Both the position numbers and the translations under genes were made by a program. A DNA stretch of 35,268 nt, from contig LT635946.1 in the NCBI GenBank assembly GCA_900128565.1, forward strand, positions 1-35,268, in the 5' to 3' direction. Shown piece after piece: positions 12,001-35,268 of the stretch. The notes beneath the pieces are model-generated. The model worked only from the letters and a program-made list of their open reading frames with translations, did not search any database and was not told the DNA's origin. Each line of letters opens with the position of its first letter. Within the stretch, counting starts at the first letter, position 1. The stretch comes from Stramenopiles sp. TOSAG23-6. Lineage: Eukaryota.

Positions 12001-15000
12001 AATCATACATGCGCTAAAGGGTATATCACAATTATAACTATGTTTTCCCTCACGACAATAAAAACCACTGGGACATTTAATTCCCTCGCGAGTTGCACCA
12101 GCACATAATTTATCGTCTGAACAAGGATGTTTAAGACCGTTTTTGCACTGATACCCTTTTGGACACAATTCTTTCTTAAATCCGTCGCATGTGTAATGAT
12201 CAGGACACTGTGTCGGTGCTATTGAATTTGCAGGACAAATCCATAAATGTGAAGAATCTATTAACCCATCTTCATCTTTTTCGTACTCGTTCCACACACA
12301 AGATTTTTTTGTAGTATAGTTTGGACAGTAATTACCTTGTGGACAATCAATACTTTGATAAGACCCAGCGAAACATAATTTACCGTTTTCTGTACATTCT
12401 ATTTGTTGTCTTGATGTTGGACAATAATTATTTTCTCCACAAATAGATGGTTCGCTAACACCAAGAGGACAGTATTGTGCTTGTAGCATGTTTGTCCATT
12501 CCCCAGAATTATCCTCACAAGCTGCTTGTGTTTTGTATTGCGAAATCACATCTTCTCCTTCATATAAACATCTTCCTAATAATACTTCATCTGTAGTTTC
12601 AGGGTCTATCCATACACCTTGAATATCGTGATTGCTATCAANACAATCAGNCTGNGATGTTCGCTTTGGGTACCATACACCAATATCATCGTTACAATTA
12701 TTTTCATCTACAGACAATAAAGTCCCTCCCATAATCCATACACAGTATTTTTTTGATAAACAATCTGGACTTGTTGTATAATCTGAACAATCATCTTTTT
12801 GGGTACTTGTGGACGCATTATTACCTTTACAATGATCTATCGCAATACAACTATCTACACTAATATTAGTATCAATATTATTAATAGTAATGACACAACT
12901 TGAACTATACGGATAATCACAACTGTACCTTTGTACACCACCTTTACAAATATAACCTAAAGGGCACAAATTTGGTAGTGATGAGCCTGTTGGACAGTAC
13001 CAGTGCTGTACCAAATTATTTATTGTTAGTGTCCTGTCCGGATTACTTGGGTTGTATACACATGGTTTTGGTTCAATGTCTCTCTCCATACAATAATTGC
13101 CCGCAGTACATATATTGCATTCTCGTTTATGTGCAAATAGTTGAAATGTACCTTCTGGGCAAGTTTTACAAGTATCAGGTCCTATGTTTTTGCAAAATTT
13201 GTGACTTTCTTTGCATTCCCCTTCACAAGAAGTGGTCTCCCAAAGACATGAATTATTTCCTATACATTCTGTATCACTAATAAGACTTGAACAATCTACA
13301 GTTTCGTCCAAAGGTGTCCACGAATTTCCACAGTTTTTTTCTGTTGATTCACTCTCATTAAAACTACTTTTACATTTGCCTTTAGCTACACAACCTTTCC
13401 AACTACATACAGATGATCTTTTTTTACAATCAGCTTCATTTATATAATCATTGCACCTTTGAGTGTGATATGAGTTACTTGGGCATACTCTATATTCTTT
13501 TGTATCACTTGAAACACTATCACCAGTTCTATTAGTTGATTTTACAGAAATTCTAAAATTTTGTATTATTGAAGTATCTTCATAATCAATTTCTGTAGTA
13601 TACTTGACAAGTTGGTTACTACCTGTTATCCACGTACAACTACGTGGACCAATATATTCACAACCATTGGTGTTATTACATGCATCTTCTTGTAGCTTCT
13701 TTTCACATTCACTGCTCGCTGTAGCACTACAACTTTCAGCGCTGGTGTCCCATTCACAACCAACAGTTTTCTCACAAAACCGTTTTAATACAAGTTCAGC
13801 ACATTTACTATTTGATGATGCAATACAAGATACACTTTTACATGAATTATTATTTGTATACATTGTACAATCGGAAGAACTTAAGCATTTACTATTAACT
13901 GAATCCCATCTACATCCGTTAGCTTTAGCACAGGACTTTGGAGATTCAGAATTCCCCAAACAATATTCAGCATTGCTTTCTACACAAGCGTTTTTACAAA
14001 AAGCTGATTCATTTGAATTTACAAATTTAGTACTTGTATTATTAATTTGTACTTGAAATTCTGTAATATCATCAATATTTTTAGTTTCTGTATCTGGACA
14101 CTGCCATTCTATATCAAAAATAATTTTTGCAGAGTTTTCTGTCTCCGGCACACTCACTGATACGGCTATATTTTGGGGAGGTGGAGGTACGCTCTCGTCG
14201 TTCATATTAGCTTGTTGCATAGGTGTGTACATGGACCATCCTACTTGATTTCGAACACGCATACGCATCCACATATTATTTATAGTAGTTGGCACATCTA
14301 GTATAACACCTATGTCAGAAGATGACTTGAACGATTTCCATGATGGGTTATCATCATTTTCTGTATCACACAAAATTTGAAAATCGTATACAGTTTCTAA
14401 GTTGGTTCCATATAATTTTGGACTTTTCATTATTAGCATTCCACTTTGTTTTTCGTATGCTAAAACCTCAGGTTGCCTTTGTTTACCATCAATCGACATA
14501 ATCGGGGCTACATTATTTGGAGCAAATGTTTTAGTGAATAATGTCTTTGCTTCACAAGAATTTTTTTGTGTACTCCATTCACACTGACTAGTGCACTCAC
14601 TTTGACTATTTTTCATTGTATTTTTGTTGTCACATTTGTCGAGACATTTACCAGTTGTGAATGATACAAATGTACCTAGTTCATTACTCCATTCAGCGTT
14701 CTCTAACCAGGTACCATTAAAGTCAGAACATTTATCTTGTGGAATGTTTGTATATAATTTATGGACTATACAATGACTCGATGTACACACTTCTTCTGTT
14801 GAAGAAGCATACACAATACTACCCTTTATGCATCTGTGTTGTTGTATTTGAATTTTGTTCCCCACCTTCAAGTTATCAATGAAATCAGAATCAGCTGCTA
14901 GTGTTACACTAGTAGCACCCACATTTGTATCATATAGAACTGTTGCTTTTACTCCATTCATTGATATGATATCTGATTTTGTGAACTTATGAGGTCTTTG

Positions 15001-18000
15001 AATTCCATATATCGTCACTACATTGTTGTTCCATACACAACCATTTGAATTCTCTTCAGCACTATAGATGTTACACTTCTCTTCGACACTATAGATTTTA
15101 CAATGACTATATATTTCATGATACTCTAAACTACTACTGTGTAAAGTATATTCTGAATCTTTTAATGTCGTCATATTTTGATCAATTACCCCTTTAATGG
15201 TATCATGTGCTTGCTTTGTACTCTCTATCACCGGGCAATTATCTGTATCAATACATCCACTGTTTGTTGGAATAATTACATGTACACCCGCTGCAAGAAA
15301 AGCAGGGGAATTTGGGAATTTTGCGTCAAAATATACTTTAGAGGATGCAGTTGATGATTCCATAAATTTTCCTTTACTTTTACCTTCTACATTGTCCATT
15401 TTCATTTTAAGTCCAATATTATATGTCTCACCAAGTACTAATGTTAATTTTTTTTCATATCTCTTATCGGAATTGTTATACTTTAAAGGTACCCCATCAT
15501 GCGTAATGGAGCCTTTGTCACTTACTTTAGCACTTATAGATGTATCCACATTATCATATTGAACTTTAACAATGGCTAATTTGTTACCTGTATCTGAATA
15601 TTTCTGCACATTATCATCCTTTTGAAATTCTTGTGCAGTGTGATGTTGTACAAGTATAATTTTATCACTATTATTAATGTACAATACTGTTCCTAATGTT
15701 TTTTCTGTTGCATCATTTTCGATAATATCATCAACTTTTATATGAGATATGTCATTAGTATCAGTCAAGGTCAAGAGAGATGTGCCATACTCCTCAATGA
15801 TTAAATCTGTCTTTTTAGTTATTTCTTCCATACCATGGTAATATATTATCCATTCACCATCGTTATTTTCACAGGAATCCTTAGTAGGAGGGCTTGGCAA
15901 TGTATTGATAATGTCACTATTATCTGGCTCACGAACTATGCATTCATAGTGTGCACCACATGTTATATCTGATATTTGAGATATTCTACAATTAGGGCCA
16001 GTAAATCCGTGATGACATGTACAATCACTTCCATTTTTTTTTTCTCCATGACCACAACATGTATTCTCAGAACATTCTATAGCAGTGCAGCTGCCAGTCT
16101 CGGTTATTTTATAACCTCGAGCGCCAGCATCTGTAACACAAGAAGTATTATACTCATCAAAGTTGATACTGAAATCTGTGCTTAAACTAGTAGAAATACC
16201 ACTACTCACAGATGTCTTTACACAAGCAGCATATGGGTCGGCTTCATCTAACTTTTCATATCCATCATTACAATGACAAATCACTTTTGGTGTACCTAGT
16301 GTAGGAATGCCTAAACTAACTTTCGGTATACATCTTTTTATGTTTGCACCACACATCAAATGTGCAGCACATTCGCCCCCATTTCCACACGAAGCACCAA
16401 CGTCTTTACGACAGATATTCATAGAATCGCATGTTAAAGGTGAAAGATCAGATGAATCAGATGAATCACACTTTTTGTTTATACTACAATCATATCCTAA
16501 ACTAGCCACGCACGAATAACCATCCACGTCTAATATATAGCCTGTAAAACAGTCACATACTCGCATTTGATTATCTGTACTCAATGCTTTACACTTTTGC
16601 GAACAGCGTGAACAAGTAGCACTTTTTAGATCTGCTATACAATCTGAAAATTTTCCCGTCTTGTCATACACTGTTGTTGAAATACATTCTTCGGTTGGTC
16701 GCTTGACACAGCCTTTTAAAATAAAGCCAGTATAACATTCGCATATTCTCTTGTCATCATTTATTATCCCATTACCACACCCACCAAGATCTGTACAAGT
16801 ATCATTAATTACAACTTTGCCACTTCCGCAAGATTCACATTCTTCTTTTGAAGTTGTGCTTACTTTTCCATCAGGGCAAACTTTGCAGGACAACTTACCA
16901 GTTTTATCTTGATATTGGCCACCAACACATCCTTTACATTCTTCCAATTTAGCAACGTCGCCAAATTTACCTATTGGGCAATCATCACATGAGTTATTAT
17001 CACCATTATGATATTTTCCTTTGTCACAATCACGGCAGGTGGGACTTATCTTGATTTTGTCGGTACCTTTAAATACTCTACAATGAACAGGACAGTTTTG
17101 TGCCCAATCATACCAATCTGCATTTACATCTGTACATACTGAATGGCCTTTCAAATCAAGAATATCATAACATCCCCATGAACCATCACTTACATCACTC
17201 TTTAGTAAATTACTTTCAACTTTTAAATCTTCATTGGTGTAGTATCCTTCAACTATTGCACACGTTACGATACATTTTTGTGCTCTGGCAAAATTAGAAT
17301 CAGAAGAGTCTGTGCATACTGGTTTGTACACCTTCGATTGTTTTGACTTTATATTTAATCCACACCAAGGGTCGGTTTCGTCCTCTACAGATTTATCTCC
17401 TATCGATGAAGGTAATAATTGTTGTCCCTCGGAGTCATATGTCTTACAATCTACACACTCACTGGAATTTCTTGCTGCTTTTTTATAGGTATGTCTACCA
17501 GTTGAACATGTTTTACACATAGTTTGTCCTGTTTCATCTTGGTATGTACCTTCAGCACAAGTACTACACATTGTCGTTGTATCATCATTATAATACCCTT
17601 TCTGACAAGGAAAACATGCTGTTGGATTTATAGTCGTTGGTATTACAAACTCACTATTATCCGTTGGTATAATATCCAAAGTTTCATATAATGTTAATTG
17701 TATAGGATCTGCACCAGAGATACTCTTAATTTGTTTTACATCTCCTGCATGAGAATCAGATCCTTCTTTGGGTAATACTCGCAAATATTTGTCTTTAAAA
17801 TATGATGTAGGATAATCTAAAGTAGCTTCAATGGGAATTTGAAAACGCCGATAACGGAAATTGCTATTAGAATCCACAGCTTTAGTGAATGTCATTTTTG
17901 AAGTTAATACTGTCTCAGTACCATTTATACATGCTTCGCATTTTTTATTACCTTCACTGTCAGCTTTCAATGTTTTACCATTAGGACATTCAGCACATGT

Positions 18001-21000
18001 AGATATTCCATTTTCAGTCCGTATTTCCCCATCACACAATTTGCAACCTTTCCATATATTATTACCGACGCAAGTTAATTGACGCGACGAGTAAGAAAGC
18101 ACAATGTTACTGAGAGATGCATAGTTTTCAAAATTATCATTTGGATTTGAACTGTTATAATCAATAACAAGTTTAATATCCATATTGTCTGCATTTGACT
18201 GGTCTAGAAATATTGAAGGTATTTTATCACGTTTCACTATGCGTATATTGTATGAATATGCAGGAACAACAAATTTCATAAAGTCACAATCTAGCTTATT
18301 TGAACATGTCATTTTGTATGTAATGTCAGTACTATGTGAATTTGTTGCAATCACAGATAATTTCCAATAACTTTTATCGCTACAGACACATCTTGGTGAA
18401 GGTGAAGTACACCACTGGCCCAATCTAGCCGTGCTTATATCAATACATTCAATACCTTTAGGAAAACTTTTCAAAAAGTCTACACTATCTTTACCATCTC
18501 TGAAATTCCATAATACATTATTATCGGAAGTTACATTCTTTGGCCAAGTAATATTGATATTGGCACTATCTTGACTCAAATTTGATGGAGTTGAATTTCT
18601 CGCATAATGATACTTACCATTACATTGACTTATTGGGCATATAGTGCCTTCTGGAGCCGGACATGTTCGTATCGCAACTCTCATTGAAGCATGTTTTTCC
18701 CATTTTTGTGGGACAATTCTTACTCGTCTACAATTTTTATTTTGATGAAAACTTTGGTGAACTACACTACTATTATCACTATTACCTGTAAATAAATACA
18801 CACCTGAAGACTTATTTGTCCGTTGATACAACCAAGTTCCTCCTTCCAATTTACCTGTATACACAGAATATTCGGTGACCCATTGTTGTAAATATGGATG
18901 TCCCTGTATATCAATGCCGTGTACTGTGCGTAAAACACCTAAATCTATTTGGATGTAACTATTTGGTGTAATGTCGTATATGCTTTGAGGTTGTTTATAT
19001 ACCATCAAATCAACTTGTGAGTGCTTTTCAGATTGAATTTTATTTATAGGTGCAGATGTACATGTAGTTTTTAGAAGTTGAACACGCATTGATATTCCAC
19101 CATGCCATGTTTGTGGCACAATTACTACATTCTTCACTTTGACTGGTTTGACCCATTTCTGGTAAGCAGTCGAGTCACAGGGCTCATTTAATGTGTTAGC
19201 TTTCCAAAACAAACTACCCTCTAGTGTCTTCTCATATTTATAATCAGTGCCTTCAGTATTATGTAATACTTTGAAATATTTCACAAAACAGTTAGTGTCC
19301 TTTGTAGTGCACCATGTTGCACCTTGGGAATTACAAGGGAGTCCTTGTGTACTGGTACCTAGAATCTCAAGAACTTCATCTAATTTTATCCGAAGTATGG
19401 CTTTAGCAGGTGTTATAGTACCAAGTGGGGGTGTCATTCTATAATTTCCGAATGTATCCTTTTGATACAGAGAAAATTTTGCTTCATTGCATGATTCTTG
19501 AACATTATGAGGTCTAGCATATGGAATATTTCCTTTTGAGGCAATCAATATACGATAATCATGACATGAAAGCTTTGGCGGAGAAGCACCCGCAGCTTTC
19601 CACGCACATGCATTATTACTGCGCATAGAATATTTCGGCTTACACACTTCACACGTCGCGGGACAACATCCTCTAACGTGGTCTCTACGGTTCCTACTCT
19701 TACACCAATGGATAGCTGCAAAACATGTATTTTCGCTCCATGGTCCATTATCATCAAGGCATGTATTGTCTGGTTTATCTACACTGTCGCAGTTTATATA
19801 TTCATCGGTACAAGATCCTTGAATGACCCAACATGATCCTTCTGCACAATCATCATGAAATGCACATACACAACTATCTTTTTCACGCTTTTCTGTGAAC
19901 CAATCACATGCAAAATAACTTTTCTGTCTATCAGAATGACCTTGAATATCTTCGTTATCTGCACATACTCCAGGTTCTGTATGACAATAGTGTCGTTTTG
20001 TGTTTGAACTTGAAATATAATCAAAAGAGGTACAATCACTCAAGTATGTGCATTGACAAAAATTATTTACTGAACCAATACCTCTTAGTTTAGGATTCCA
20101 TATATATGTGGAATCAGTGACTTGAAATGTATCCTCTTCATCTAAAGGATTTACACTTAAACCAGTTTCTCTTTCTTTGGTCCAAGCAGGAAAACACCAT
20201 TGACCTGGACTACCGCCCCAACTGCTTACCATGAAGTAATTTATCTTTTTGTTTGCGTCTAGTGAGATAGACATGAACTCTTGTTTACCTACAACTTCTC
20301 CCTTTCCTACTCTTAAACGGTCATCATTCCATGATATCCAAAAAAACCTGAATTTATTTCGATTTAGAATCCCCCATTGATTGTGTGTATCTTCATCTGT
20401 CCCCTGATTACTTCTTCGCATTAGAGACTTCGAATTGTTCCAAGCACCTATTACAATCTCATATTTTTTACCTTCATGAGTAGTCCCTTCACTGAGAGCA
20501 ATATGAGCATCATTCCTTGTTTTTACAGAAAATACAATGCTTTTCTTATCAGATATAGGTATTGCTCCTTTATATTCATATTTAGCTTCAGCTTCGAATC
20601 CCACTTTCGACTTATTTTGTTGGGATCCAAAATTAAGTATAGATGGAAAATCTATATCCTTAAGGTATGATCCACAAAAATTATTGATAGGGCCATCGAA
20701 CTGTAAAGATTCAACTTCCTTTGGCTGACTGGAGATGACACTACCATTACTTGCTGTGAATTTAGGTATGTATACATCTATAGCTTCTGGTGTTTCCAAA
20801 TTACAACTAGATCTACTTGGTATTTCATATTTCCATGGCGTATATTCGGAGGATGTAGGTGCACTACATTCACATAATAATAACTCCATGGATTCTATCA
20901 CCGATAAAGGTGTTATTCTAACATTTGGAATTTGAAATTTCTGGTTATTATTCTGGTGACAGAAAGAGGATGTTTCCCAGTATGCAGTACAATGTGCAGT

Positions 21001-24000
21001 GCCACTGACACACTCATCGCCCTCTTGCCCAAGTGGTGGACGAATTGTAGAAGGATGATTAGCTGCATTTCCAAAGCCCATTCTGTATATTATGGATCCA
21101 TTTATGTCACCCTTGTCAATATCAAAAGCCCACATTTTCCAAAAGTTATTCCATCTTAAAAATACTTGATTATCAACATCGGTATCTTGCTTTTTCCAAT
21201 ATGCTTTATTGTTGATTTGATCATTTTGTAGTATGTATATACCACTCACATCATCTCTGTTGCAGAAGGCAGCTTCTTGTCCACCCCATGATATAATATC
21301 AGCTGTGACTTGTAAACGTCTTGGGATAATTGATGTATCCTGTGAATAATTTAAATCTGATGTTGATTCTTTTGTATGGGTACATGAAACTTCATTTGTT
21401 GTATGACACATATCATTCTCAGTTTCTTTCCAAGATTCATCATTCCATGCATGAATACATGTACGACCAAAACTTGAGCAGTATTCAGAACAACTTGTTT
21501 TAACATTATGTCTAAGTACAGTGCAATCTCTACATGCAATTTGAGAAATGTTGTTTTCATTATTGTTTTCTTGTAAAGTAGGCCAGTTTTCTTCATTACA
21601 CAAATTAGACTCAGTACTTAAATTCGTCATTCCAAATGCAAAATATAATCGATTGGAATTCGAATTTAAGAGGGTGTTTGGGTTTTGAAAATTATTTTTT
21701 GATTTTCCAATTCTAAAGTTATTATCGTTAAATCGGCTAAACTCATCAATTTCATTCAAACTATTGAGCGTTAGACCTTGAAATGCAATACCATTTGGTG
21801 GAATTTTAGATACCACATTAGTATCAGTAGAATAAAAACCATTATTTTGCGTTTGATCAATACTTTTGTATGTGTTTTTAATTTGAGATTGACTTCTTTC
21901 TGTAAGGATTTGCCCCCTCGGTGAAGACATTGGGTTTGTATTTTGTGACCACATCAAATACGACGTTTTTAATTTCGAGTAAGGATAATGAATTTTAAAT
22001 TTAAACCCATTTTGTTTTGTTCTAAATTGCTCAATATTTTCTAATCGACTGTAATTAGCTGAATATTGGTCTGGTGAATTTGGATTTTGTACACCACTCA
22101 CCAATGAATATCCTAAATTATGCCATGCATATTGATTTTGTGAAAAATACTGATTTTTTCCAGTACTGGAAGACTGCCGACCTAGTAAGTTCCAAACACC
22201 TTCAGTGTTATATAAAAGTTCTCTATCTTCTTTTAAACGCCCAGCTGTAGTTTTCTCGGTATGATTTCGTGTATCGCATTGCATGACAGATGCTTTTCGA
22301 GTATATACAGAAAATGTAGATACTGAACCACACAATAATCCTGCTTGACCTGCGATAGTATTTACGTCACACCGCAAACATTCAGATTCTTCTGCAGCAT
22401 TGAATAAAGGTCGTTGTGTTGAACATGTACAATATTTTGCATTGTATATGGCTATATATGTATATATAGTATGTTCATTTGATAAAGATCTAGTATCACA
22501 TGCTTCAAAACATATTTGCGGACTTGCAGTTTTTTCATGCATCTCTAATGTAACGGACCAATTCATTAAGTTACTTGTGTCTACAGGATCAGTTTTCAAA
22601 GTATTTGTAAAACATCCAAAATATTGAATTGGATTTTTCGTGGAATCTTCACCAACAACACCTCTACTCTTTGTTGTAGGCACACACTCTGCACTCCATG
22701 CAGTATTTGAGTGTATCTTGGGTGATAAAATACGAGAAAATGAAGGCATTGATGTTTTATATAATCCAAATCCATTTACTGATGTTGACAATAAACCTTT
22801 CACTGTTGAAAAAATAGGTGTATTATTTTGATCACTATCATTCATACATTGCAATGATGGTTTCGATGTTTCAATACTATCAGCACAACATTGCACCGCG
22901 GCATGTTTTACATGCTTACATTGTTTTTTTGTTCCAACACAAGACCCATCAGTCCATTTGCAAGAAGATGCCTCACATTCAATCTGGGATGTCAAGTGAT
23001 TACATGTTGTTTGAACAAAAACAGATTGCAAATTGTTGTTATGAATGTTTGTAGAACTCAATGGAGTGTTGTTTGTATTGATTGCAGTACTATCAACTCT
23101 CTGCCAATCAAGAAATGCTGAAACAGATTTCCCCCCTGATCGATCAATATTTACTATATATCGTATTTCGTGTTTACCAGCAACTAAAAATACACTTTTT
23201 GAACTTGTCCATTTTTGTACACCGTCAATATTTGACCAATTGCTAACAAATCCTACACAACCAGGTGTACCATTACTAATACATTGCCATGTACTTGACA
23301 AATTCGTTTTATCCATTGCCGTTTTATTGAGCAGTTTTGGTACAATGCGGCAATTTTCGTGAGAGTCAGAATATGTTGGATTTATTGTTTGATGTCCAAT
23401 TGGGTCGCAAACGACTCCATAACAAATATCATTTTCTATTCTACAATATCGTTTTGCTTCATCTAGTCCACAAATACCTACACATTGTCCACTAATAAAT
23501 TCAGAACAATGTGATTTTCTACATTGTAATTCATTTACTGATATTGATTTGCCTAAATATTGCTTCCATTCAATGTTGTAATTATCCCCAATACTATCAT
23601 CTCCAATATCAATTCCTCCAAGATTAAGTGCCATAGGAAGCTTGGACGCCTCTTCACCGCCAACATTGTTTGTAAACTGTGCTTTTTTTCCATTTGGCGC
23701 TGTACATTCACAAATGGCATCGGATGTACCCGTGAATTTATAGTCACACCCTTTATGTTGAAGCACATCGCAATTGTCATCTCTTTCTTCCCATGCATCA
23801 ACACATGTGCGCGGATTGACTTTATCAAGTTGGGCACAATAATCATTACATGAATTATTATAACCATTAATGTTAATCAGAGCTTTACATTCACCACACA
23901 CAAGGTCATGGTCCTTACTTGGCCATGTTGATTCATCACATAATTCATCCGCAGGAATCGAATCTCTGACGTCCCCAATACCTTGAAAAGGTGGGGGTGA

Positions 24001-25777
24001 ATGAACTCTATTGATAAACACATCATCAACATACAAATAACTACCACCATGAGTACTCTCATAGAATCTATACAAACCTGATTTTGGAACAGTCATCATT
24101 CCTGTCCATCGAACAACTAATTTTTCATCCTGGGGTCGTAAATCTATGTAAAATGTTTGATCTTTACCCACTGGAGATGCTTGTGGTAAATCTAAAGCAT
24201 GACAATCAAAGTCATGTAAATTTTTGTCTGTTTCTTTAGTAAATTTATTAATCACTAAATAGCAGCATCCTAATCCACTTCCACAATTCGCACCAATCTG
24301 ACAAGCTTTTTCTGACCAAAAAAGACCAGAGGTATTTCTCCCGTCATCACAATCATCTGCTGCATCAATGTAACACCAATCTGATGTAGCTCCCTGCACT
24401 GTGTCATCCATATTGCAGCGATTATTAGCGAGAGGTGATTTACACTTGCATTTTTGTTTTGCACTGATGTAATGAACGCCTGTACAATTTACAGTTTCAT
24501 TACACTTTTGTTTACATAAATCAACATGTGATGATTCGAATCTACCAGTACGTATAACGTCAACATTGATATTATTTCCTACATTGCAATCATCTCCTTG
24601 TATCCATTGAATTTGAGTACCAAAAGTAGGATAATCACTAGTGGCGACATGTTGTTTTGCAGTAAAATTTGTATCATTGCTATCAATATCAAATACCCAA
24701 TATTGTGAATTCCATTGCAGGTACATACTACCGTCTGTTCTTCTCCATTTTATTTTATTGTTATGTTTATCTGAATCCCTCACGTATATACCATTTAATA
24801 TTGAATTTTGACATGTGCCACCACCTACGAATGCTGTAATTTTTAAGACATCAGATAATATCTCACTTTTTAAACTACTTGTATTACATAGAGTATTTGT
24901 GTGTATTTTCCATTGAGGTACTACAATTCTATCGTGTATAGGGGGTGGCTGTGTACCATTGATAGACTCCCATTTAACACCACTTGCTAAAGGGCGACTA
25001 TCGCATCTTGTTACTAATGGAGTAGATCTGTCTAATACAGCATTAATACCTAAATATCCTATATCGAGAGGTTTTATATCTGCGCTATATACTGTATATG
25101 ATGAACACGAACTCGCTTCATAATATATATTACCTATAGCAGCAGAAGTGCTTTGAGTACCAATACCAATCATACTGAGCACACAGTCACCTTGCTGAGA
25201 ATCAGCCAAATTGGATAATCTTGCAAACACCATACAGTGTTCATTTATACATGCATCTTCACATTCACTTTTAGTTTTCATTTCAAGTATTCGAGGTTTC
25301 TGTATGCAGAAATTTGATGTAAGTTTATTAAATGTTGATTTTTTTTCAAAAGAATAATACTCACCAAAGAACGATAATGTTTGTTTGTTCACAGACGAAT
25401 TCTGCATTGAACATTGATTTGATTTTGATGTCTCCGTAGACATATTATATTGCGTTTGTTTCTTTGTTTCATTATTTCCTAATACATATATTTGAGCAGA
25501 TTTTTTCCAATGTTTTGGAAATGGGCCTTCTTGACACCCCTTAAAATCAGAATTGCCTTTGTCATCTTTATTACCTATAGTAATTGGTACATCAAGACAT
25601 TGTACACACTTCATCTCACCATTCACTGCTGAACAATATGCTTCATTCTCCTGATTTTGATTCTCACATACTGCGCCTTCAAAATTACGATTGTTACAAT
25701 CGTTACCTTCGACCCATGTGCCACTGGTGCAGCAGTAGCCAATACTCGTGGTCGTTGCTCCTGGTACTCCCGATGTA
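3007..25777 (-). CDS. Giant Cys-rich multi-pass cell-surface receptor-like protein, exon 2 (ectodomain repeats, TM, EF-hands, TRP-like TM region, WW/PDZ tail)
   Basis: Uninterrupted 7539-aa ORF (3007..25626). Its frame stays open upstream to 25777 (TSGVPGATTTSIGYCCTSGTWVEGNDC...), up to an AG acceptor, so the GTG at 25626 is unlikely to be a true start. Confidence 0.9.
3070..3157 (-). other. WW domain 2 (C-terminal) of the giant protein
   Basis: LPKEGWSKKWSSSKGKYYWIHLTSGALEWKDP fits W...G+YY....T....W..P. Confidence 0.75.
3220..4130 (-). other. Three PDZ-like domains
   Basis: PLGIGL...AKVTIVQKDS...GVVKGMRLVKVDGSDI; GVMIVGFQ...AGAKIGMHLISINEKDV; GARVDGF...LADAGVVKGMHVLSINGRDV. Confidence 0.75.
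4384..4467 (-). other. WW domain 1
   Basis: WTKFYAESKNCFYWVDDNTGDVRWENP. Confidence 0.7.
4570..5580 (-). other. TRP/PKD2-like multi-pass membrane region (about 7-8 TM), as in protist GPCR-related Cys-rich proteins
   Basis: A series of hydrophobic helices with family motifs YP......F.C....G..YLRAD..I.C, YGSLYLQYK..FWWYE..ELLRK and RPY. Confidence 0.7.
6000..6165 (-). other. EF-hand pair (cytoplasmic, after the first TM helix at about 6215-6270)
   Basis: Two canonical 12-residue loops, DADNSGTVSSVE and DINNDGVISYSE. Confidence 0.85.
7720..8316. repeat. Near-identical ~595-bp intragenic duplication, copy A
   Basis: Matches 11482..12078 at a constant offset of 3762 with only a handful of substitutions. 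The core of about 420 bp appears identical. Confidence 0.95.
11482..12078. repeat. Near-identical ~595-bp intragenic duplication, copy B
   Basis: Matches copy A at 7720..8316. Confidence 0.95.
13520..14530 (-). other. Two fibronectin type III-like domains; the second is interrupted by Cys-rich repeats
   Basis: MRMRVRNQVGWS...PPPPQNI...IEWQCP...ITEFQVQI ... NFRISVKSTNRTGDS. Confidence 0.55.
16800..17620 (-). other. Ephrin-receptor-like (GCC2/GCC3) Cys repeats
   Basis: CFPCQKGYY...CSTCAEGTYQDETGQTMCKTCSTG and CDDCPIGKF...CKGCVGGQYQDKTGKLSCKVCPDG. Confidence 0.75.
18660..19345 (-). other. F5/8 type C (discoidin) domains
   Basis: YIQIDLG....VHGIDIQG....QWVTEY...FTGNSD...V...F....CRRVRIVPQKWEKHASMRV, plus a second copy VKNVVIVPQTWHGGISMRVQL. 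Confidence 0.8.
20195..20545 (-). other. Farnesoic acid O-methyltransferase-like (Methyltransf_FA) domain
   Basis: FSVKTRNDAHIALS...YEIVIGAWNNSKS.MR...GILN..KFRFFWISW....LRVGKG....FMS...SSWGG. Confidence 0.75.
22297..22623 (-). other. WSC-like carbohydrate-binding domain
   Basis: YFGCF...PQICFEAC...Y.YIAI.NAKYCTCS...EC..C.......CG.....SVY. Confidence 0.7.
23100..24120 (-). other. PA14-like domain split by inserted modules
   Basis: N-half VRWTGMMTVPKSGLYRFY...GGSYLYVDD; C-half SVFLVAGKHEIRY...LDWQ lies about 270 aa later. Confidence 0.6.
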
Positions 25778-25857
25778 CTGTGAAAAAATATTTAAAAAAT
25801 CGTTAGGTACAAAGTTTCGTACAAAAACANATTANATCTGAAATTCATGATGAAAAC
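25778..25857 (-). other. Short GT-AG intron, introner-like insertion
   Basis: Minus strand reads CG TAC [GTTTTCATCATG...TACCTAAC GATTTTTTAAATATTTTTTCACAG] TAC ATC, with a branch-point-like CCTAAC, a T-rich tract and a CAG acceptor. Removing these 80 nt joins the two ORFs in frame. The stronger-looking GTACGT donor at 25861 (84 nt) would not be in frame unless the N at 25863 hides an indel. Confidence 0.75.
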
Positions 25858-28800
25858 GTACGNGGACAGAACTGCCCATCAACATCGCAGTCCCAACCAG
25901 TGCAGGATGTGACACGGGGATTACACGCATTTGTATCAATGGTACGAAAATTCCAACAAAACTTTCCATTGACTGTGAAATCATTCTTTGGGTTCATTAT
26001 TGGAATTGCACCAACTGTTGTAAGTAATGATTCGTTTTGTTTTTTACCATCATCACAAATACAATACTTCGTAAATCCTTGTTTTGGATCATCCACATTC
26101 AGGGGTGCCTTTCTATGTTTACACTTCATATTGGTTCCGCCATCAACCCAAATACTCCAATATTCCTCGCCAAATTTAAAATGTTTATTAGTTACACTAA
26201 ATGGACCATCAACGCCATACTTGACAGATCCATTTGCACAATCAAAACGTTCACCCTCTTTAGCAGCATAATATTGACTACCTTGTATGTGGTCCATTAT
26301 ACCGTCATTATCAAAATCAAATAGCCATCCACCTGCACCAGGCACTGAACTAAATAAACCGTATCTTGATGCTTGTATTGTTGTATTACCACATGTTACT
26401 AAATACAAGTTTCTTCCATTACTTAATTGATTGATGTGTTGATCTTTTAATTTATAAAAGCTGTTCCAATTTGACACGTAACCACCTGCAATTTCATTTG
26501 TATTAAATATTAATGAAGAATTGTCGTTTTCTTTTATATTAATTATTTGCGTCCACCCTTTCAATTTAGTTGTATAATTACAAGTTACAAGACGTGTGAT
26601 TGCCGGGTATCCAAATGTGATGGATTGATCATGTATCACGTCGTTTAAAATTGTACCTGTATCACGCATTGTAGATAAATATAAATTTCTACAACTCGAA
26701 TATACTGCTTTGATACAAACACCGGATGACCATGTACAAACGCCGTTACACCAAGCTGCTCCATTTCCTTGAGGACAACCTTCACAACCTGTATACGAGT
26801 AATGATTTCCACAACTTATTCTTTGTGATTGGCTTACTGTTCGTAGTAATTCCTCGTCGGATAAGGAAACACAAAACAAATGTCCTTTCTTTTCTGGTGT
26901 TAAAGCTTGCGATTCATTTTCCTTGAACTGTAAACCATCCAATAGATTTGTTCCATACGATGCACATTGTCGTATACCAGCACTTTCATCATTGCTACCA
27001 ATTTGTACATATTCGCCAGAACCATCCAGTACAGGTGACCAGCTATCAGTGATTGTATTATCACTATTATTAAAATTTGTGAAATATACAGCTTGTACAG
27101 GTGTATTACCAGACATATTTAAATAACGAAGAGGGCATATTTCTTTTGCGTAAGCAAGACGCTGGCCTAAAGCGAGGCATAATTCTTTTGCCATGGACCA
27201 AGTCTTTTCACCCGGTATATCATAATGTGTAGGTTGGGACGTATACTGGACAAATCTGTCTAGCTCAAAACCAGAATTTTGATCTAATGGAATATTTGGA
27301 TTCCTTGGAGTAGGTGCATCAATACTGCATTGCGTACTACTCCATGTCATTCGTCCTTGAGCTCTATGATTACATGCATCATCATACTTAGTTTGTGCAA
27401 GCAATTCATGAATAGTACACAATCGAGTACCCGATTTTGCACATATATCTTCTGCATGTTCCAAAGTGACATGATTATGACATTTTGCTTTCACTCCGCC
27501 ATGATTCGGCGGTAATGCCCAAACACGAAATTCGTTTAAATCAAATTTACTCTGTCTATTTTGAGTAGTATCATTTTGTAACTTGAAGCGAAGAGTTACA
27601 GCTTTTACATACACTATATCAAATTTAAGAGTTGTCTTGTGTGTATTAGTCACATCAAACGTTTCTCTATCGAGTACAATTTGATTATACCAACCTCCCA
27701 TGTCATTGCCACCCTGTGGTACATGCTGATTGGATACTGTACCAATGATAGATTGATTATGAGCAATACCTCCCCATGGCTGAGTATCTGTTACCACACG
27801 CATGTTGCTAAATCTTCGAGATCGACTTGAAGGCAAATTATGTGCAACTGAAAATCGTCTCAATGGTTCTTTAAATTGACCACTCACAATATCAATTAAA
27901 AATATAGGTGAAACTTTTTCAAATTCAAATGATAATATTATATCTTGAGTATTAGGAGCCAGGTGATAAAAATACAAACCAAATGCGTCTGATTTAGAGT
28001 CGATTATATTTTCCTTTACCTGTGATGAAGTTGAATTACATTTGCAATGTGGATCGGGTAAAGTGATGGGACTACTGCATTTGATACCTACACCAATATC
28101 ATTTCCAGCTTTACAATAACCATTTCTATATTCAAGATTACCCCATGCATTACTACCTTTAGTACAAGAATTCAATGGCTCATTTTCTTTACAGTGTCCC
28201 ACATGCATTGCATCTTTAGTAAATTTTATTCTTGTTACTTCACGTACACCAACATTGTACCCAAGTTTTTTACAAATAGTTGTTGCACCATAATCATTAT
28301 CCCAGAAAAAATGACCACATATGGGATACCAATCAGCATTCCAGAATACTTCGGCATAAAATAATTCACCTTGCTCGGGAAATTTCTTACCACATTCACA
28401 GCAATTGTTTTCAGGATGATTGAATTCAAGACCTGATTTCCATTCTTCACCAGCTTGTACATTACCATTAGCACACCAACCCTTATGTTCATAGTACGCA
28501 CAATCTTCACCATTATTTCCATTATTCCAATCAACCGTATCTTGACAGCTTCCATACCCCGACATTACCCTAACGTCACCATCTACATTTGGATTTGTAA
28601 CTAAGTCATTGGAAAAACTTTTTATGGAACATAACTTTTGTGTCACAGGAAAGTTTTGATTTTCATCTGGTTGCATATTGACTGTACCGAGTAGTAAAGT
28701 ACCTTGAAACAATGAAATAGTACCTTTACAATAACAAACTTTATTGTTTTGTGCACATGTATATGTAGCGACAGGGTCAGCAATATTAGTATTAGTGTAT

Positions 28801-30254
28801 GCAACCTTTGGTTGTGTGACAGAACCTCCATTTTCTGAAGCTGCAACGTTGATGGCAAGTAGTGCCTTTGCTTCGACAGGTTGATGCCATATACTAACTT
28901 CATTAATGTCAATATCATGTACACTAGAATGCGGTGAAGATCCTTCAATAACTTCAATTTCAACACGTGTTGCTGATACGGGTGTAAAAGATAATTCGAT
29001 ATTGTAGACTGGTGCGTTACTACAGCTGTATTGAAAGTGATCAAATTGTTTGCAAAGTGTATGCTTTGTTAGTATGTACCCATCAGCACAAGACATCTCA
29101 TCAACTTTTGCACAACAGTGCTCATCAAAATTTCCATTTTTCAGACATTTCGAAGCATTGTGTGTTGGTGGTACACAAGTGAACTTTTGGTATTTGTATC
29201 CACCCCTTCCACAAGTAAAATTTAAATTCGTTAGAATATAGTTATCCAGGCATGTTTTGTTTTCAGTACTTGATGCACAACAGCTTACATCAACTATCCC
29301 ATTAATTCTACATTTATTTGGGTCGTGTTTAGGTCCTTCTGCATACGTACCACCACTCAAATGAATCTCATCTTCATGAGGGCTAGATTTTTTGTTTAAA
29401 AAAACATGCGGTTCATTAGAACCGAGCCATTGACTACGAAGAACACGTAATTTCTGAAATTGTTTTGGAGTATCATCATCTACCCCATTGAAATAGCGCA
29501 AACGAAATTTCATGAGATAGTTTTGCCAATGCCCACTTGATATACTTATCTTATGAATTTCTTTCGCAACTTCATCTTTAAAGATGAATGAAATAACTGG
29601 ATGATTGGTATCTGAGTGTGATATAACACCACGATAATCAATCACACCATCAATGATACTCGATGTACTAGCGTCTGCGTGCATACAAGAGCATGAAACG
29701 ACAGTCGAGCAAGAATTTGGCTTATTCAATTCACAGTCCATCAATCCATCCCACAAAAACGACTCTGTATATTCTACATTTGTACTTGATTTGCATTGTA
29801 TACTCATGATTCCTTTACAGTAACAATTATATCCAGCAAGTTTGCAGTCGATGTTTTTGTTCCGCACAGTAAGTGACGTGCTAACTGTACCCCCGTTTGC
29901 TGATGCGGCTATATTGGTACCGGTACTGAATAATACGTTGTATTCTGAAGGCATTACTTGATCCAAGAGAGGAGGTATCTGTGTAGCATAACACACATCC
30001 TTTGGTTTGTCATCCTTTGTTGGTCCCCAGTTTGTGACAGGCCCAAGCAATACTCTATCCAACGAATCGGTGTATCCCTCTTCACCTTGGAGAGTTTCAC
30101 AATTTATTACAGAGATCTCATCAAATATTGATGATTCTTCAAGAGTTCCTGTGGTAGATGTCATTGTGCAACCCCCTTCACAGCTAGCTGAAAGACAAGG
30201 CGTAACAAACAACAATAGCGCGAGGAAAATTATCATGAAATGATTGAAATTCAT
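25858..30254 (-). CDS. Giant cell-surface protein, exon 1 (signal peptide, discoidin-like, SRCR-like and lectin-like modules)
   Basis: 1513-aa ORF 25845..30386. The ATG at 30254 begins a signal peptide MNFNHFMIIFLALLLFVTPCLSA. The ORF ends mid-module (CTGWDCDVDGQFCP), and that module continues in exon 2 (SGVPGA..GYCC..GTW). Confidence 0.85.
28074..28584 (-). other. SRCR-like domain with an internal insertion
   Basis: DGDVRV ... EVFWNADWYPICGHFFWDNDYGATTICKKLGY...C...E....C...GVGIKC. Confidence 0.65.
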
Positions 30255-31076
30255 CGGGGTACGATATCGCCGAACGGTTTTTGCTACCTTGAAAGTTTTT
30301 TTCGTGTTTTTCAAGTTATTCTTGAGGTACCGCTTTCCATATAGAGTTTGCAAAAGATGTTTACTATATAATTGTGATACTATCATGTTGAAAGTGTTTC
30401 AATAAATCAGTAGATGTAATACTTAATCGCTGAAGTGGACTTTGATTGTGTACTAACGATATACAACCGGTTGCTTCAACAAACTCTACCCAAAAATCGC
30501 CGAAACCGAACATAAGGAGTTTCTCTTTTTTTTTGAGCAGGTTTGTTTCAAATTTCAAAAAAATGAAACCGTTAAGGGCCGATCTTCGCTAAGAAATCGG
30601 CCGCGGACATCAAATCGAGAAAATTTTCTCTGCGCACTATAAAATTTTATTGTTTTTTTCGTATGCGGTCATGCCATAAGAATATATTTTCATCACTGTA
30701 AAACCACCAGATATTGTGTTGATAGGTGTAATAAAAGATATCCTGAAGTTTGTTTACTGTAAATTATCAAATTACTTTGCTAAAACAAATTTTCTACTTG
30801 CCCTTAATTGAAACTCATGTGCTCCTTGAAAATGTACTTCATGTTAATATGGGGACTGTAGCAAATCGAATTGATCACTAAAACAAATTTGGACACTGGG
30901 TACATACACTCCAACGTATCCACAACACAATAGGAGGCTAAAATATACTCAATTGTACTGTTTTGTCTACGTTTGGTTTAATTTTGTCAGGAGCATTCCC
31001 AGAGTGTTCCTCATTTCAAGCCATTTTTACACTATAGAAAACTTTCAATAGTGATTCGGATAGGATAAAATATACA

Positions 31077-31952
31077 ATGCTACCTAGTGAATCTAGTTTG
31101 ATAAAGCGGATGTTCAAGAATGATGGGTCGCTTACCCATGAAACTTCATTGGTGTTCCAAATTTTTGGGGAGCCAAATGTACTCTCTGAACAGATAGGAA
31201 ATCGCCGGCTAGAATCACCAATGATGACAATAATAGATGAATCAGGCTTTGCTGCTTTTGCATTTGTGGCACAGTCTGCGTGGAGTAAATATAGGAAATG
31301 TTTATTTAGTCGAGGAATGACTATATCATTCAAACCGAATCAACTTGTGCCAATCCGAAAGGTATCATTTGATGGTGATTTGGTTCAATTTCATTACTTG
31401 CTGTTTAATTGGACTCTTGGAGAAGTTTTAAGTCTACCATCTAAAATAGAATGGCCAGAATTGACTAATATAAAGCCTAAACCAGTTGTAGAAAGAGTTT
31501 TTAGACAGCATGGTTTTTTGAAGGAAACTTGTGGTAAGAGACCATTATTCAAAGATGGGATGTATTTTTTTGAGTGTGACGGCGTTAGCTGCAGTAAGTC
31601 TGGACAAGAAGAAGTTACTGTAGATGACGGAGAGTTGACTACCGCAGAAAAAAAAGAGAGAAATGGTGATGAAAACTATGACCATTTTGACTTCCATAGA
31701 TGCATTATTGATTTGATTCCACTTCCAGATATTCAGCTACTTGGTCAAGAAAACCATTATGTTCCAGAGAGGTATTCTGATGGAATTAAGAAGTTACCGA
31801 AGACATTAAAGCGTAACATTTTATACACATTTTATGCAACAAATGTGTTTCGATTTAAAGATAGGACACGGTTACCAAAGTGTGTACTTGCAGCAATTCG
31901 TCAAAAGTTTCCACAACTTGATGATGAAAAGGATTATACTTTCTACATATGA
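31077..31952 (+). CDS. KolX-like accessory protein with a P2X7 C-terminal (ballast)-like motif
   Basis: The C-terminus KRNILYTFYATNVF...RTRLPKCVLAAIRQKFP....DY resembles the P2X7/KolX motif R..AYR.Y..W.F....LPSC....IR..FP....Y.GF. 291-aa ATG-initiated ORF. Confidence 0.6.
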   Translation: MLPSESSLIKRMFKNDGSLTHETSLVFQIFGEPNVLSEQIGNRRLESPMMTIIDESGFAAFAFVAQSAWSKYRKCLFSRGMTISFKPNQLVPIRKVSFDGDLVQFHYLLFNWTLGEVLSLPSKIEWPELTNIKPKPVVERVFRQHGFLKETCGKRPLFKDGMYFFECDGVSCSKSGQEEVTVDDGELTTAEKKERNGDENYDHFDFHRCIIDLIPLPDIQLLGQENHYVPERYSDGIKKLPKTLKRNILYTFYATNVFRFKDRTRLPKCVLAAIRQKFPQLDDEKDYTFYI

Positions 31953-32739
31953 TGAACCACCATACTCACGAAATGTTGTATCTAACAAAGCTGGTCAAAA
32001 TTATGTATGTTTTCATCATCATTTTTTTTTACTTTTCTTTTTTTTTGTTTTTTTGTATTGTCCAAATCTTCTAAATATTCAAGCCGCGAGACTTGGAAGA
32101 GAGGGTCTTTACTGTCTATGACAGTATTGACCCAACTCGAGTACCTCCTTGAAGAAGTAGTTGATTTGTNTTGTTTTTCATCATTTTTTTTACTTTTCTT
32201 TTTTTTAATTTTTTTTTTATTCCTTTACTTCAAGTGCGGGGCCCGCCTGTCCATGGTCCGAGGCCCCCTGGTTGTTGGGAATATTTTTATTTACTTTTTT
32301 TTTTTGACTTTATCAAAGTTTCCTCGAGTTATTTTGTTTTGTTAGGGAGTAATGGACATCTTCAAGATGCATTCCATGAGCTCGCCACTCTGTGGGACTC
32401 CAGTAGTCCGTGTGGCTGGGATTTATCCCCCTAACTTGTGTGAACTATACTTTTTCCCGCAGTAATTTTTTGTCATTGTAATTCTGTTTCTGACATTAAT
32501 TTCTGCTATACTTTTTTACATTTTAGACTAGGACTAGGACAACCATTACTAGACTTGGTGTGTCGGGATTTGGTGCGTCAAGTGTTACAATAATTGTTGC
32601 AATATCTTGATTTACAATACAAATCTTGAATTGATCTACATTTTCTTTCAAAATTATGTACGTTTTCATACTTACAGTGAACCCATAATTGTTCATTCTA
32701 ATCATACAAATACTAAAAATATTAAAAAAAACTCTAACC

Positions 32740-33039: not shown

Positions 33040-35241
33040 TTAAGTTGCATCTGCTTTACATCTACATAGTAAATTCTCAATAACATCTTTTGATCCTCTT
33101 GGAACATTTGAAGGATCCAGTTGCCTGAGCCACATTCGCTGCTGAACACTACTAAGCTTTTGTATATTTTCAGCAGATATCTCCAAATTTTTTAAACGAA
33201 GATTCTCTACAGGACACTTTGAAAATGAATGAAACTGGTTACAAACCTTGCAGGGTTTTGGACGTCGCTTTTTACGTTTTTGCTTGGGCTTACTACTATC
33301 AATAGCAGCAGTGCCTTCACAATGAGTTGATGTTTTTGATGAATCATAAGCACCGGGAGCACCATTCAGACCAATAACACTATGATCACCATGTATTCGA
33401 CCCTGTTTACCTAGTCGTTTCTTGAACATTCGTTGATTCCGTTTCTTGATCTCTTCTGGAGACTTATCCTTTTCAGCCTTTTTATACGCTTCTTTTTGAC
33501 GCTTGATTTCACTCTCTCGAATATCTTTTGAAGCAAGACCTGGAATACATAATTTTTTACCAAATCTTTCAAGTGTATCTGAGTATGGAGTATATATACT
33601 TTTTAAATTGTGATGGTTATTTAACAACCTGGCAGCACGAACAGATAGACCTACAGCTTCCATAATACGACATTTCCAAACTTCATAGTGTGTGTCCTTT
33701 GGACGCCACTGTGCCAAGGTTGATATTATACTTTCACATATATTATTTTGTTGCACACCAGTCTTTTGGTTCCAAATACCACTATCTTTACTGAAGACTT
33801 TAACATGTAAAATATGATTTAGCTGCTTTATTTGTGCGTCACAAGTTACAACAGAACCGGCTTTCTTTTTGAATTCACTGTGATGATTGCAATTTTCATC
33901 CTGACATTGACCTGTCAAGTGAGGCCATGCGTGCTCCTTCCAACATTTCATCATCTCATCTCGAAGGTTCCATACAGTACCAGGAAAATTTACATTTTCT
34001 GTTCCATCTCTATTAAATCTCTCTAGCTTATGTCTAAACCGAGTGAAGAGATAGTTCAGAGCAAGCTGAACTCGCAAAGCAAAATTACTATTTGTACTTT
34101 TGTGCATCTTTGTTTTAGACTTACTACGATTTGTATTTGTTATACAGTCACACACAACACCGACATCACCAACAACAACACTGACATCACCACCAACAAC
34201 ACTGACATCACCACCAACAACACCGACATCACCACCAACAACACCGGCATCACCAACATTGACATCACTAACAACAGCATCACCATTCTTATTTTTCTTA
34301 TTTGCAATGTATAACGGGCAGTCACTGTAGTGACAACCACAAACAACTTTAATATCTTTTTTTTTGGTTCCAAATTTCAAAGATGATTTTTGCAGAGCTA
34401 AAGCTTGCTGGACTTGACCAAAATTATGGGCTATTGTTGATGAAACTGCTGTGATAGGTTTATAGCAACGCCTAACTTTGTGGATCCAGCAACGCACTGA
34501 ATTACACAAATTGAAAACCTCACGGCAATCACCATCTGCGTGCGTATCACCATCTGATGAATGAATCGTAACAACATAATTTCCATTTGGGCCATCACGA
34601 TTCTTGATTGACTTTAGTCCTTTACGGCGACAAATACTCTCAAAGTATGTGCCATCAGCTACTTTTTCGCCTTCAACATCATCAGGTATTGTTTGACCTT
34701 TTATGTCAAACAATTCATCATCACGTGACGATACCATATTCCACGCAATTAGAAGTCCTGAGATCAAATCCACGAAAACAACTCCACCAATGTCTGATGG
34801 CGAAGAGTGGTTTTTTTTTGACCGGATAACCCAATAACCATCACTTTTGAGCATCATTGAGAGACGACCTCCAGGTGAATGAGGATCACGCGAATCAACA
34901 ACTTCAAAGCCAGCTTCAAAGAGTTGTTCAAGTGTTGGCATAACACAATGAACTCCATACAATTTATAGAGGTTGTTGTATTGGCGTTCTGAAACAGAGT
35001 GCCTACCAGAAAGATCTCGTTCCTCCTTATACTCACCATGACTTTTACCTCTCCAAAATGAAGAAGCAAGATCGCGAAGCGTAGGAACATCACTCACTGA
35101 TGTTTCAATACATTCTTTGTAATTCATGCATCGTTCTCGGAGGGCCTGTGACTGCGATGACGATCGAAATTTGACCTGCTCATTACAGCAAGAACAACAA
35201 CCCCATGTATATAAGACATGTATTTTGGAAAAATATTTCAA
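33040..35241 (-). CDS. DDE transposase, Kolobok/Mutator-like; 5' end uncertain
   Basis: First D in DGYW...HSS...GGVVFVDLISGLL; second D in SSDGD; CWIH (CxxH); catalytic E in QQNNICES.IS.L....PK; basic NLS-like KQKRKKRRPK; CCHC-like knuckle CKVCNQFHSFSKC. The ORF-track TTG start lies inside an introner-like repeat. Confidence 0.8.
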   Translation of the reverse strand: MKYFSKIHVLYTWGCCSCCNEQVKFRSSSQSQALRERCMNYKECIETSVSDVPTLRDLASSFWRGKSHGEYKEERDLSGRHSVSERQYNNLYKLYGVHCVMPTLEQLFEAGFEVVDSRDPHSPGGRLSMMLKSDGYWVIRSKKNHSSPSDIGGVVFVDLISGLLIAWNMVSSRDDELFDIKGQTIPDDVEGEKVADGTYFESICRRKGLKSIKNRDGPNGNYVVTIHSSDGDTHADGDCREVFNLCNSVRCWIHKVRRCYKPITAVSSTIAHNFGQVQQALALQKSSLKFGTKKKDIKVVCGCHYSDCPLYIANKKNKNGDAVVSDVNVGDAGVVGGDVGVVGGDVSVVGGDVSVVVGDVGVVCDCITNTNRSKSKTKMHKSTNSNFALRVQLALNYLFTRFRHKLERFNRDGTENVNFPGTVWNLRDEMMKCWKEHAWPHLTGQCQDENCNHHSEFKKKAGSVVTCDAQIKQLNHILHVKVFSKDSGIWNQKTGVQQNNICESIISTLAQWRPKDTHYEVWKCRIMEAVGLSVRAARLLNNHHNLKSIYTPYSDTLERFGKKLCIPGLASKDIRESEIKRQKEAYKKAEKDKSPEEIKKRNQRMFKKRLGKQGRIHGDHSVIGLNGAPGAYDSSKTSTHCEGTAAIDSSKPKQKRKKRRPKPCKVCNQFHSFSKCPVENLRLKNLEISAENIQKLSSVQQRMWLRQLDPSNVPRGSKDVIENLLCRCKADAT
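34154..34285. repeat. 21-bp in-frame minisatellite inside the transposase (GGDVSVV repeats)
   Basis: ACAACACYGACATCACCAMCA x4 plus degenerate shorter units. Confidence 0.9.
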
Positions 35242-35268
35242 AAAAAAATCGTTAGGTACAAAATTTCG
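35218..35268 (-). repeat. Second copy (partial, at window edge) of the introner-like element
   Basis: Aligns with 25773..25819. AAAAAATCGTTAGGTACAAA[G/A]TTTCG matches at 25 of 26 positions, and both copies share the ATGTA flank. Confidence 0.85.

Follow-up and report, generated by a model that had tools for sequence, protein, structure and literature searches.

An 89-nt insert in a giant reading frame

We analysed 35,268 nucleotides (nt) of DNA from Stramenopiles sp. TOSAG23-6 (GenBank assembly GCA_900128565.1, contig LT635946.1, positions 1 to 35,268; hereafter the window), which is one entire contig of a 21 Mb eukaryotic assembly of 6236 contigs. A minus-strand reading frame (30398 to 3007) is interrupted at one place only, near 25.8 kb, by an insert that splits a Cys-rich coding region, as an initial annotation of the sequence had proposed. 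On the minus strand the insert (25861-25773) reads GTACGT...CAGTACAT, and the frames on both sides of it are open. Removing these 89 nt gives a frame of 9100 codons, with the protein reading ...GQFCPPGVPGA across the joint; the product, some 9100 residues long, is a Cys-rich membrane protein with matches to F5/8C, Methyltransf_FA, Ephrin_rec_like, EF-hand, TRP-like and PDZ domains. The features are listed in Table 1, where a slash marks a splice boundary.

Table 1. Features of the intron, its host gene and a second family copy in the window
Feature	Position	Strand	Basis
89-nt intron GT...AT, member of a genome-wide family of intron-forming elements	25773..25861	-	RNA joint, limits of family homology, 9100-codon frame
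5' splice site CAC/GTACGTTT (-3 to +8)	25854..25864	-	10 of 11 Watson-Crick pairs with the 5' end of this genome's U1
Conserved core, imperfect palindrome in the family consensus (GTACGAAATTTYGTAC)	25807..25822	-	Commonest family core strings
Branch-point-like motif TACCTAAC, putative branch A at 25803	25802..25809	-	Conserved in the family
Conserved 3' terminal motif TTTTCACA(A/G)TAC plus final AT, cut after AT	25773..25786	-	Family logos, RNA end at 25772
CAG within the intron, 5 nt before its end, unused as acceptor	25778..25780	-	No RNA piece ends at 25777
Upstream exon of the host gene, ending ...GQFCP	25862..30398	-	28 of 29 called bases of the RNA loose end agree with the window from 25862
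Downstream exon of the host gene (giant Cys-rich membrane protein)	3007..25772	-	Reading frame and domain matches
Second family copy, 3' part, end CCAAAATACAT, inside a transposase-like frame	35218..35268	-	51 nt at 84%; truncated by the contig end

RNA contigs define a GT-AT junction

We compared the window with assembled contigs of RNA and DNA sequencing runs over 22800-25829, the limits being set by Ns (three lie here, at 25830, 25835 and 25863, as had been noted). The contigs of RNA runs X5, X8 and X9 (three of three, one sample) all break off at 25772. Beyond it each has a loose end (141, 255 and 51 letters, respectively) that continues as the window from 25862 onward. None of the three ends at 25777, the joint of an AG reading, and none at 25774, the joint of a reading shifted by two bases to an AT-AC type. 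One DNA contig, from run X3, covers 24827-25829 and beyond, i.e. it enters the insert. It differs from the window at 12 positions, all outside the intron and including the 10 single-nucleotide polymorphisms (SNPs) of the X5 contig, and it is identical to the window at the intronic CAG. Since the DNA contig and the RNA share these SNPs, in this haplotype the insert, CAG included, is present in DNA and absent from RNA. Because the exon flank is not AT, the joint cannot slide at this copy.

The intron is therefore removed exactly from GT to AT, and the CAG lying 5 nt inside is bypassed; the contribution of this copy is a joint fixed in position, together with an AG that splicing passes over. In-frame acceptors that would give introns of 98 or 104 nt are excluded by the same joint. 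Contigs drop rare variants and rare isoforms are invisible in them, so a minor 80-nt isoform could exist alongside the main product. The N at 25863, which had been suspected of masking an insertion or deletion (indel), is read as a single base in the RNA.

An empty site was sought among alleles and homologues. No empty-site allele is listed in the single DNA run compared (X3). For the region of the host gene beside the junction, no homologue was found among 484 candidates (long proteins only), a HMMER search gave 9 weak matches of repeat type (the one inspected is unrelated), and a metagenome pattern search gave 37 matches with none confirmed; therefore no orthologous empty site is available.

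A genome-wide family of intron-forming elements

A search of the genome with the insert returned 521 candidates. Among the 40 non-self matches listed, 20 span exactly query positions 8-96 (25861-25773), none spans the limits of an 80-nt unit, and the best match of this copy has 88% identity. The initial annotation had described an 80-nt GT-AG introner (or 83 nt excised) flanked by a TAC or GTAC target-site duplication. A TAC does precede GTTTTC (25857) and another does follow CACAG (25778), 80 nt apart, but both lie within the element; genome matches and RNA give 89 nt, and the RNA joint ends after AT. What stood was the proposal that the insert belongs to a multicopy, intron-generating family that sits in genes and is spliced out.

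For a systematic view we applied a motif-anchored finder to 133 loci, which gave 446 raw calls, 388 unique, 254 well bounded and 186 strict copies, the strict set being defined without regard to the last two letters. In 60 loci picked by contig number (432,429 bases) there are 152 copies, far from the two-copy case that had been named as grounds for rejecting the family, and a reversed control of 232 kb gave 0. Extrapolation to the assembly gives a rough total of 7,000-7,400 copies, with contigs often breaking in copies and some contigs duplicated. The summed depth in the last X3 bin (16,142 vs 5-9) is compatible with a high-copy family but is not a copy number. An exact 21-mer search did not find the element core in viral contigs.

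Family copies begin GTAYGTTT, have a core ending in TACCTAAC and terminate in TTTTCACAATACAT. The last two letters (n=186) are AT in 142 copies, TT in 17, AG in 8, AC in 7, GT in 5 and others in 7; the first two, conditional on the filter, are GT in 171, AT in 14 and GC in 1. According to the logos, the 3' CAT is conserved at 80, 85 and 89%, and the exon ends in A (72%) and T (83%), with C at -3 in only 36%. The G that creates the CAG in the window copy is a minority variant, found at 7% at that position. GTAC does occur four times in the insert, as had been pointed out; five of the 186 copies have four, and most have one to three.

Reading frames support exact removal across the family. Excision of the strict copies leaves a frame open over 20+20 codons in 170 of 186, as compared to 85, 71, 87 and 67 when the cut is shifted by -2, -1, +1 and +2, and 61 in antisense. 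The same holds for the copies that do not end in AT (34 of 44 open with the exact cut, 19-20 when shifted) and for those with an AG five letters before the end, where the full-length cut leaves 13 of 13 open and the AG cut 6 of 13. There is no AG at all between branch motif and end in 131 of 186 copies. A WD40 gene carries four copies, and exact removal of those ending in GT, AC and GG makes it gapless against 11, 11 and 9 of 11 homologues. Conserved genes with several copies each read through only after exact removal. That the family exists, that its copies have common ends and that they lie in sense orientation within reading frames is directly observed.

The insert has been called the only intron in 27 kb, and this agrees with what was tested: the copy finder calls one complete copy in the window (25773-25861), the flanking frames are open, and the RNA comparison covers the range given above. 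The second copy that had been seen in the window is real (Table 1). For the suggestion that the family was recently active the evidence is split. The two most similar of 254 sampled copies share 97.9% identity, which supports it; the median best match is 85.6%, the window copy reaches the 88% given above, and the insert is carried by two haplotypes with 12 differences in 1003 bases. The family is of mixed age.

Donor-like words outside the called copies number 84, vs 105 in the reversed control; judged by eye, those resembling introns are apparently family copies that are broken or degenerate. No separate class of GT-AG introns was seen among these words, and no homology search for one was made.

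Two variants were observed within the strict set. Copies starting with AT (14 of 186; e.g. L049 + 3459, L061 - 6876 and L121) end in T in 13 of 14 cases (AT-AT or AT-TT), and their exact removal keeps the frame open in 12 of 14. Head-to-tail tandem copies without an exon between them occur in three of 186 (0-based, L049 + 4081-4280, L050 + 130-308 and L023 + 901-1128).

Small nuclear RNAs and splicing proteins

U2, U4, U5, U6, Prp8 and a U2AF65-like gene are present in the assembly. The predicted U1 small nuclear RNA (snRNA) of this genome is altered to match the family donor: its 5' end reads AAACGUACAUGG vs AUACUUACCUGG in the Rfam consensus, both copies carry the same three changes and the same 5' end, and AAACGUACAUG at that end is fully complementary to the family donor CAU/GUACGUUU. 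Mean pairing to the 186 family donors is 9.1 of 11 for this U1 as compared to 6.9 for the standard one, and a standard U1 was not found in the assembly. The alternative GTTTTC donor at 25857 makes four U1 pairs and two wobbles. The branch-pairing GUAGUA of U2, loop 1 of U5 and ACAGAGA of U6 are all standard. By complementarity, then, the GT donor would pair with U1 and the branch motif with U2 as in canonical introns, with TACCTAAC as the putative branch point; the canonical 3' AG is absent, the RNA being cut after AT and AG ends occurring in 8 of 186 copies.

The genes of U5, U2, U1 and U4 lie in one tight cluster on two contigs, with U6 elsewhere. The cluster (L097 9-645, G000:C1146; second copy C6122) runs head to tail, its genes being 2, 23 and 5 bases apart, and this arrangement suggests a single precursor transcript. 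An exact-pattern search of metagenome contigs for U2 followed by U1 found no such tandem, and near relatives may be left out by this pattern.

None of 17 zf-CCCH matches is U2AF35, and incompleteness of the assembly would be enough to account for this. A degenerate motif for U2AF35 gave four matches, and the best, the one of the four examined, is a chance frame over another gene. Prp8 is conserved, and identical in the stretch around human 1515-1530. At human 1864-1868, in the RNase H domain, it reads TRPFL instead of TRKGM, which is found in 62-67 of 67 homologues; the site (L134 ~700-716, minus strand) is ten codons from Ns, and we treat the change as a lead only.

Proposed mechanism and alternatives

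The 89 nt of the window are very likely a copy of a short non-autonomous element that has been inserted thousands of times in genes and is removed exactly from the pre-mRNA. In the proposed mechanism the major (U2-type) spliceosome would do the cutting, with U1 (5' AAACGUACAUG) recognising CAU/GUAYGUUU and U2 the CCTAAC branch motif. The 3' end would be set by the element's terminal motif (a U-tract, then CA(C/A)A(A/G)TAC) and not by AG, the cut falling two letters past that motif whatever these letters are (mostly AT, and also TT, AG, AC, GT and GG). The consensus donor GTACGT had been set aside as out of frame in favour of the weak GTTTTC; with the true 3' end it is in frame, and the RNA joins it to the non-AG end.

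Less firmly, the element proper may be GT...AC with inverted ends (perfect over 3-4 bp in 135 of 186 copies), inserted as DNA at CAT^G-like, palindromic (CATG-type) targets with duplication of 2 bp. The duplicated AT would become the 3' splice site, so that splicing would restore the target exactly, and at the window copy the exon-side AT would later have become AC. Positions -1 and -2 of the exon covary with the last two letters of the intron, and -3 does not. Among 44 non-AT ends, 12 equal the two exon letters before the donor, whereas 2.0 are expected and the maximum in 20,000 permutations was 8. This covariation of the end with the upstream flank fits a 2-bp target duplication.

Several points weigh against this account. 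The last two letters differ from the flank in 32 of 44 non-AT ends, and an AT end has a non-AT flank in 40 of 184 copies, so that a simple duplication of the target would require subsequent mutation or a mechanism that tolerates mismatches. The inverted ends are only 3-4 bp long, no autonomous partner was found, and the neighbouring transposase-like element starts with another type of end (TTAA/GG). The 186-copy set includes loci picked for likeness to the window copy, and the first junction of the WD40 gene falls in an indel-rich loop and is uninformative. The U1 is a predicted gene that scores 54.1 bits (E 7.5e-12), below the Rfam cut-off of 69.5. The RNA support consists of one junction in assembled contigs (not reads) of one sample, and the DNA control comes from another sample, with only the 3' 57 nt of the intron comparable.

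The strongest competitor keeps the splicing and changes the route of spread: an excised intron would be reverse-spliced into other transcripts at U1/U5-friendly CAT/G sites, reverse transcribed and recombined into the genome. The sense orientation of the copies (170 vs 61 open frames) agrees with this, as do conserved parts that are splice signals, the very short inverted ends, the head-to-tail neighbours of three of 186 copies and an AT flank that U1 would also prefer. Selection, however, is likewise expected to give a sense bias, and reverse splicing does not predict the covariation between the new flank and the last two letters of the intron. We regard this route as unlikely, though it deserves to be taken seriously.

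It is improbable that the family is removed without the spliceosome, guided by paired ends or an internal palindrome as proposed for the non-conventional introns of euglenids. The ends ATGTA...TACAT are complementary in many copies and the core is nearly palindromic, but pairing extends over 3-4 bp, the window copy folds weakly (its core no better than shuffles), and a fixed GTAYGT donor, a branch motif, a U-rich tract and a matching U1 point to the spliceosome. Slightly more improbable still is that the RNA came from an insert-free allele, the window allele being a broken gene and the family unspliced. The RNA and DNA runs are indeed different samples, and a 348-nt DNA-level indel nearby shows a polymorphic population. 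Against this, the DNA contig with the RNA's SNPs contains the insert, X3 has no loose end at 25772 among those listed (10 more are unlisted), and the multi-copy conserved genes read through only after exact removal.

Two readings can be practically dismissed. An 80-nt GT-AG introner (GTTTTC...CAG) with a 3-bp TAC duplication has its letters in place and splices in frame, as claimed, although with three extra codons (9103 vs 9100) and not one, but it is contradicted by the ends of all three RNA contigs, by family homology over 89 nt, by the lack of such an AG in most copies and by a donor that pairs poorly with U1. A family of AT-AC introns (minor-type or shifted), cut two bases further left at both ends, gains from the AT before GT in 122 of 186 copies, mostly with AC before the final AT, where sliding is possible; it is opposed by the non-AT flank here, where RNA sets the cut at GT and after AT, by the 55 of 64 copies without an AT flank that stay open with a GT...NN cut, and by a donor that fits U1 and not a U11-type site. 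The U12-type donor is RTATCCTT, whereas the donor here is GTAYGT and the joint an unambiguous GT-AT; U6atac was not found in the assembly, which may be incomplete, and U11, U12 and U4atac were not searched.

The GT-AT family and the U1 altered to match it together suggest that a single selfish element has reshaped the splicing machinery. A wider version of this idea is tentative, and we lean slightly against it: one selfish element would have replaced nearly all introns of the lineage and re-tuned the spliceosome, with U1 rewritten at three positions to fit the element end and the duplicated target. Recognition of the 3' site would dispense with AG and rely on a fixed distance from the terminal motif, possibly in the absence of U2AF35 and with an altered RNase H domain in Prp8. 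On this view every 2-bp duplication of a target would yield a perfect intron, so that insertion would lose its main cost.

Transposon-like genes and other features

The right part of the window (30572-35268) is a Kolobok-like transposon with a candidate left end TTAA/GG at ~30572-30577. It holds a PF20700-like transposase (33040-35217, Atlas score 0.90), which itself contains a family intron, and a convergent frame (31038-31952) that has no Pfam match and whose C-terminus resembles the KolX/P2X7 ballast. The Kolobok features used for comparison are from part of PMC9587614. As a mobiliser of the family the transposase-like frame (33040-35268) is unsupported, being single copy with a left end unlike the family ends. 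A second PF20700 transposase gene (L140, G000:C79), followed by what looks by eye like an exonuclease-like frame with a break near an N, shows no family ends in the 3.6 kb seen. Helitrons insert at A^T without duplication and have a 5' TC, a 3' CTRR and a subterminal hairpin. The family ends can be read as an A^T insertion, but TC and CTRR ends are lacking, the hairpin is weak and the flank covariation fits a duplication.

Family-like starts (GTATGTTTTCATCATC, GTACGTTTTCAT) that lack the core are found on the plus strand at 32005-32230 and 32656-32680, in the interval separating the two convergent frames; they are possibly degenerate copies or introns of untranslated regions.

In the giant gene, a 348-nt in-frame segment (23597-23944, 116 codons), consisting of one Cys-rich module and a linker, is missing from the RNA and from one DNA contig, with 5 letters of micro-homology. 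This difference is a DNA-level module indel, and a related copy lies on another contig of run X3. The gene also contains a 600-bp duplication (7717-8316 vs 11479-12078) with 98.5% identity.

Host placement and significance

In a Prp8 tree the host falls among environmental sequences next to oomycetes and ochrophytes, with weak support for the group (0.78); one group member, P0037, clusters with Incisomonas marina. From its sequence the uncultured host is probably a heterotrophic stramenopile, a placement that is not firm, and the sequencing runs that contain these sequences are marine.

Few rules of splicing are as conserved as the 3' AG. Thousands of GT-AT introns, an ignored AG and a matching U1 amount to a natural experiment on the choice of the 3' end, and the same genome bears on whether changes in core snRNAs can be driven by mobile elements. 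Many gene models that standard gene finders produce for this lineage will be wrong or truncated; the in-frame but wrong GT-AG reading of the window is an example.

Comparison with known systems

The comparisons below draw on parts of the cited sources. We found no paper on a stramenopile GT-AT intron family or on an introner-linked change of U1, in a search to which subscription papers and supplements (e.g. the introner catalogue of PMC12130899) were outside.

Like Amoebophrya A25 and A120, in which the majority of introns are non-canonical and repeated, with direct and inverted repeats (PMC7789003), the present host is a marine protist with repeated non-canonical introns. In the portion of that paper used, the Amoebophrya introns have no clear terminal signature, 8-20 nt inverted repeats and many families, and U1 was not detected, unlike the fixed donor, branch motif, terminal motif and matching U1 found here.

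The family has the hallmarks of introners, with many similar copies at unrelated sites that lie in genes and are spliced out. It resembles those of Micromonas, Aureococcus and Parmales (PMC12130899; PMC11282704) in being a short, non-autonomous, multicopy and intron-creating element of an aquatic protist; there, too, a splice site may come from the target duplication and one family can dominate intron gain. As far as the excerpted survey goes, introners have 3' sites of only AG and AC, with 3-bp duplications in Micromonas (PMC12130899; PMC11282704), unlike the apparent 2-bp duplication, AT or variable 3' site and exact excision here.

Co-evolution of the U1 5' end with an atypical donor has been described for Entamoeba (AACAAAC) and Mastigamoeba (ACGUAC) (bioRxiv 10.1101/2022.06.08.495308). 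The ACGUAC core of the predicted U1 here equals the Mastigamoeba variant, and an extra A would extend the pairing as in Entamoeba. Unlike both, U1 also has a change where it pairs with the final base of the exon (C9A, which fits T and not G), and unlike either as described in that part of the source, the change accompanies a family derived from a transposon and a 3' end other than AG.

The nearest case is that of the non-canonical introns of Fritillaria. In F. borealis and F. pellucida most introns escape GT-AG, with AT the commonest 3' end (34% and 44%), and the diverse main classes start with AG (AG-AC 18%, AG-AT 16%) (PMC13326754; PMC11282704); the 5' end of U1 is strictly conserved and U2AF is duplicated (PMC13326754). 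Both systems have a YAY triplet immediately upstream of the 5' site and another at the 3' end (here CAT/...CAT/), and both combine a transposon-derived intron with removal, here probable, by the U2-type spliceosome and a proposed origin by target duplication. The AG start, unchanged U1 and duplicated U2AF are not found here. Unlike in the portions of the Fritillaria accounts drawn on, one GT-donor family dominates (171 of 186), the predicted U1 is changed at three pairing positions, there is one U2AF65-like gene with U2AF35 not found in the assembly, and the host is an unrelated protist. The two systems appear convergent, each with a different solution.

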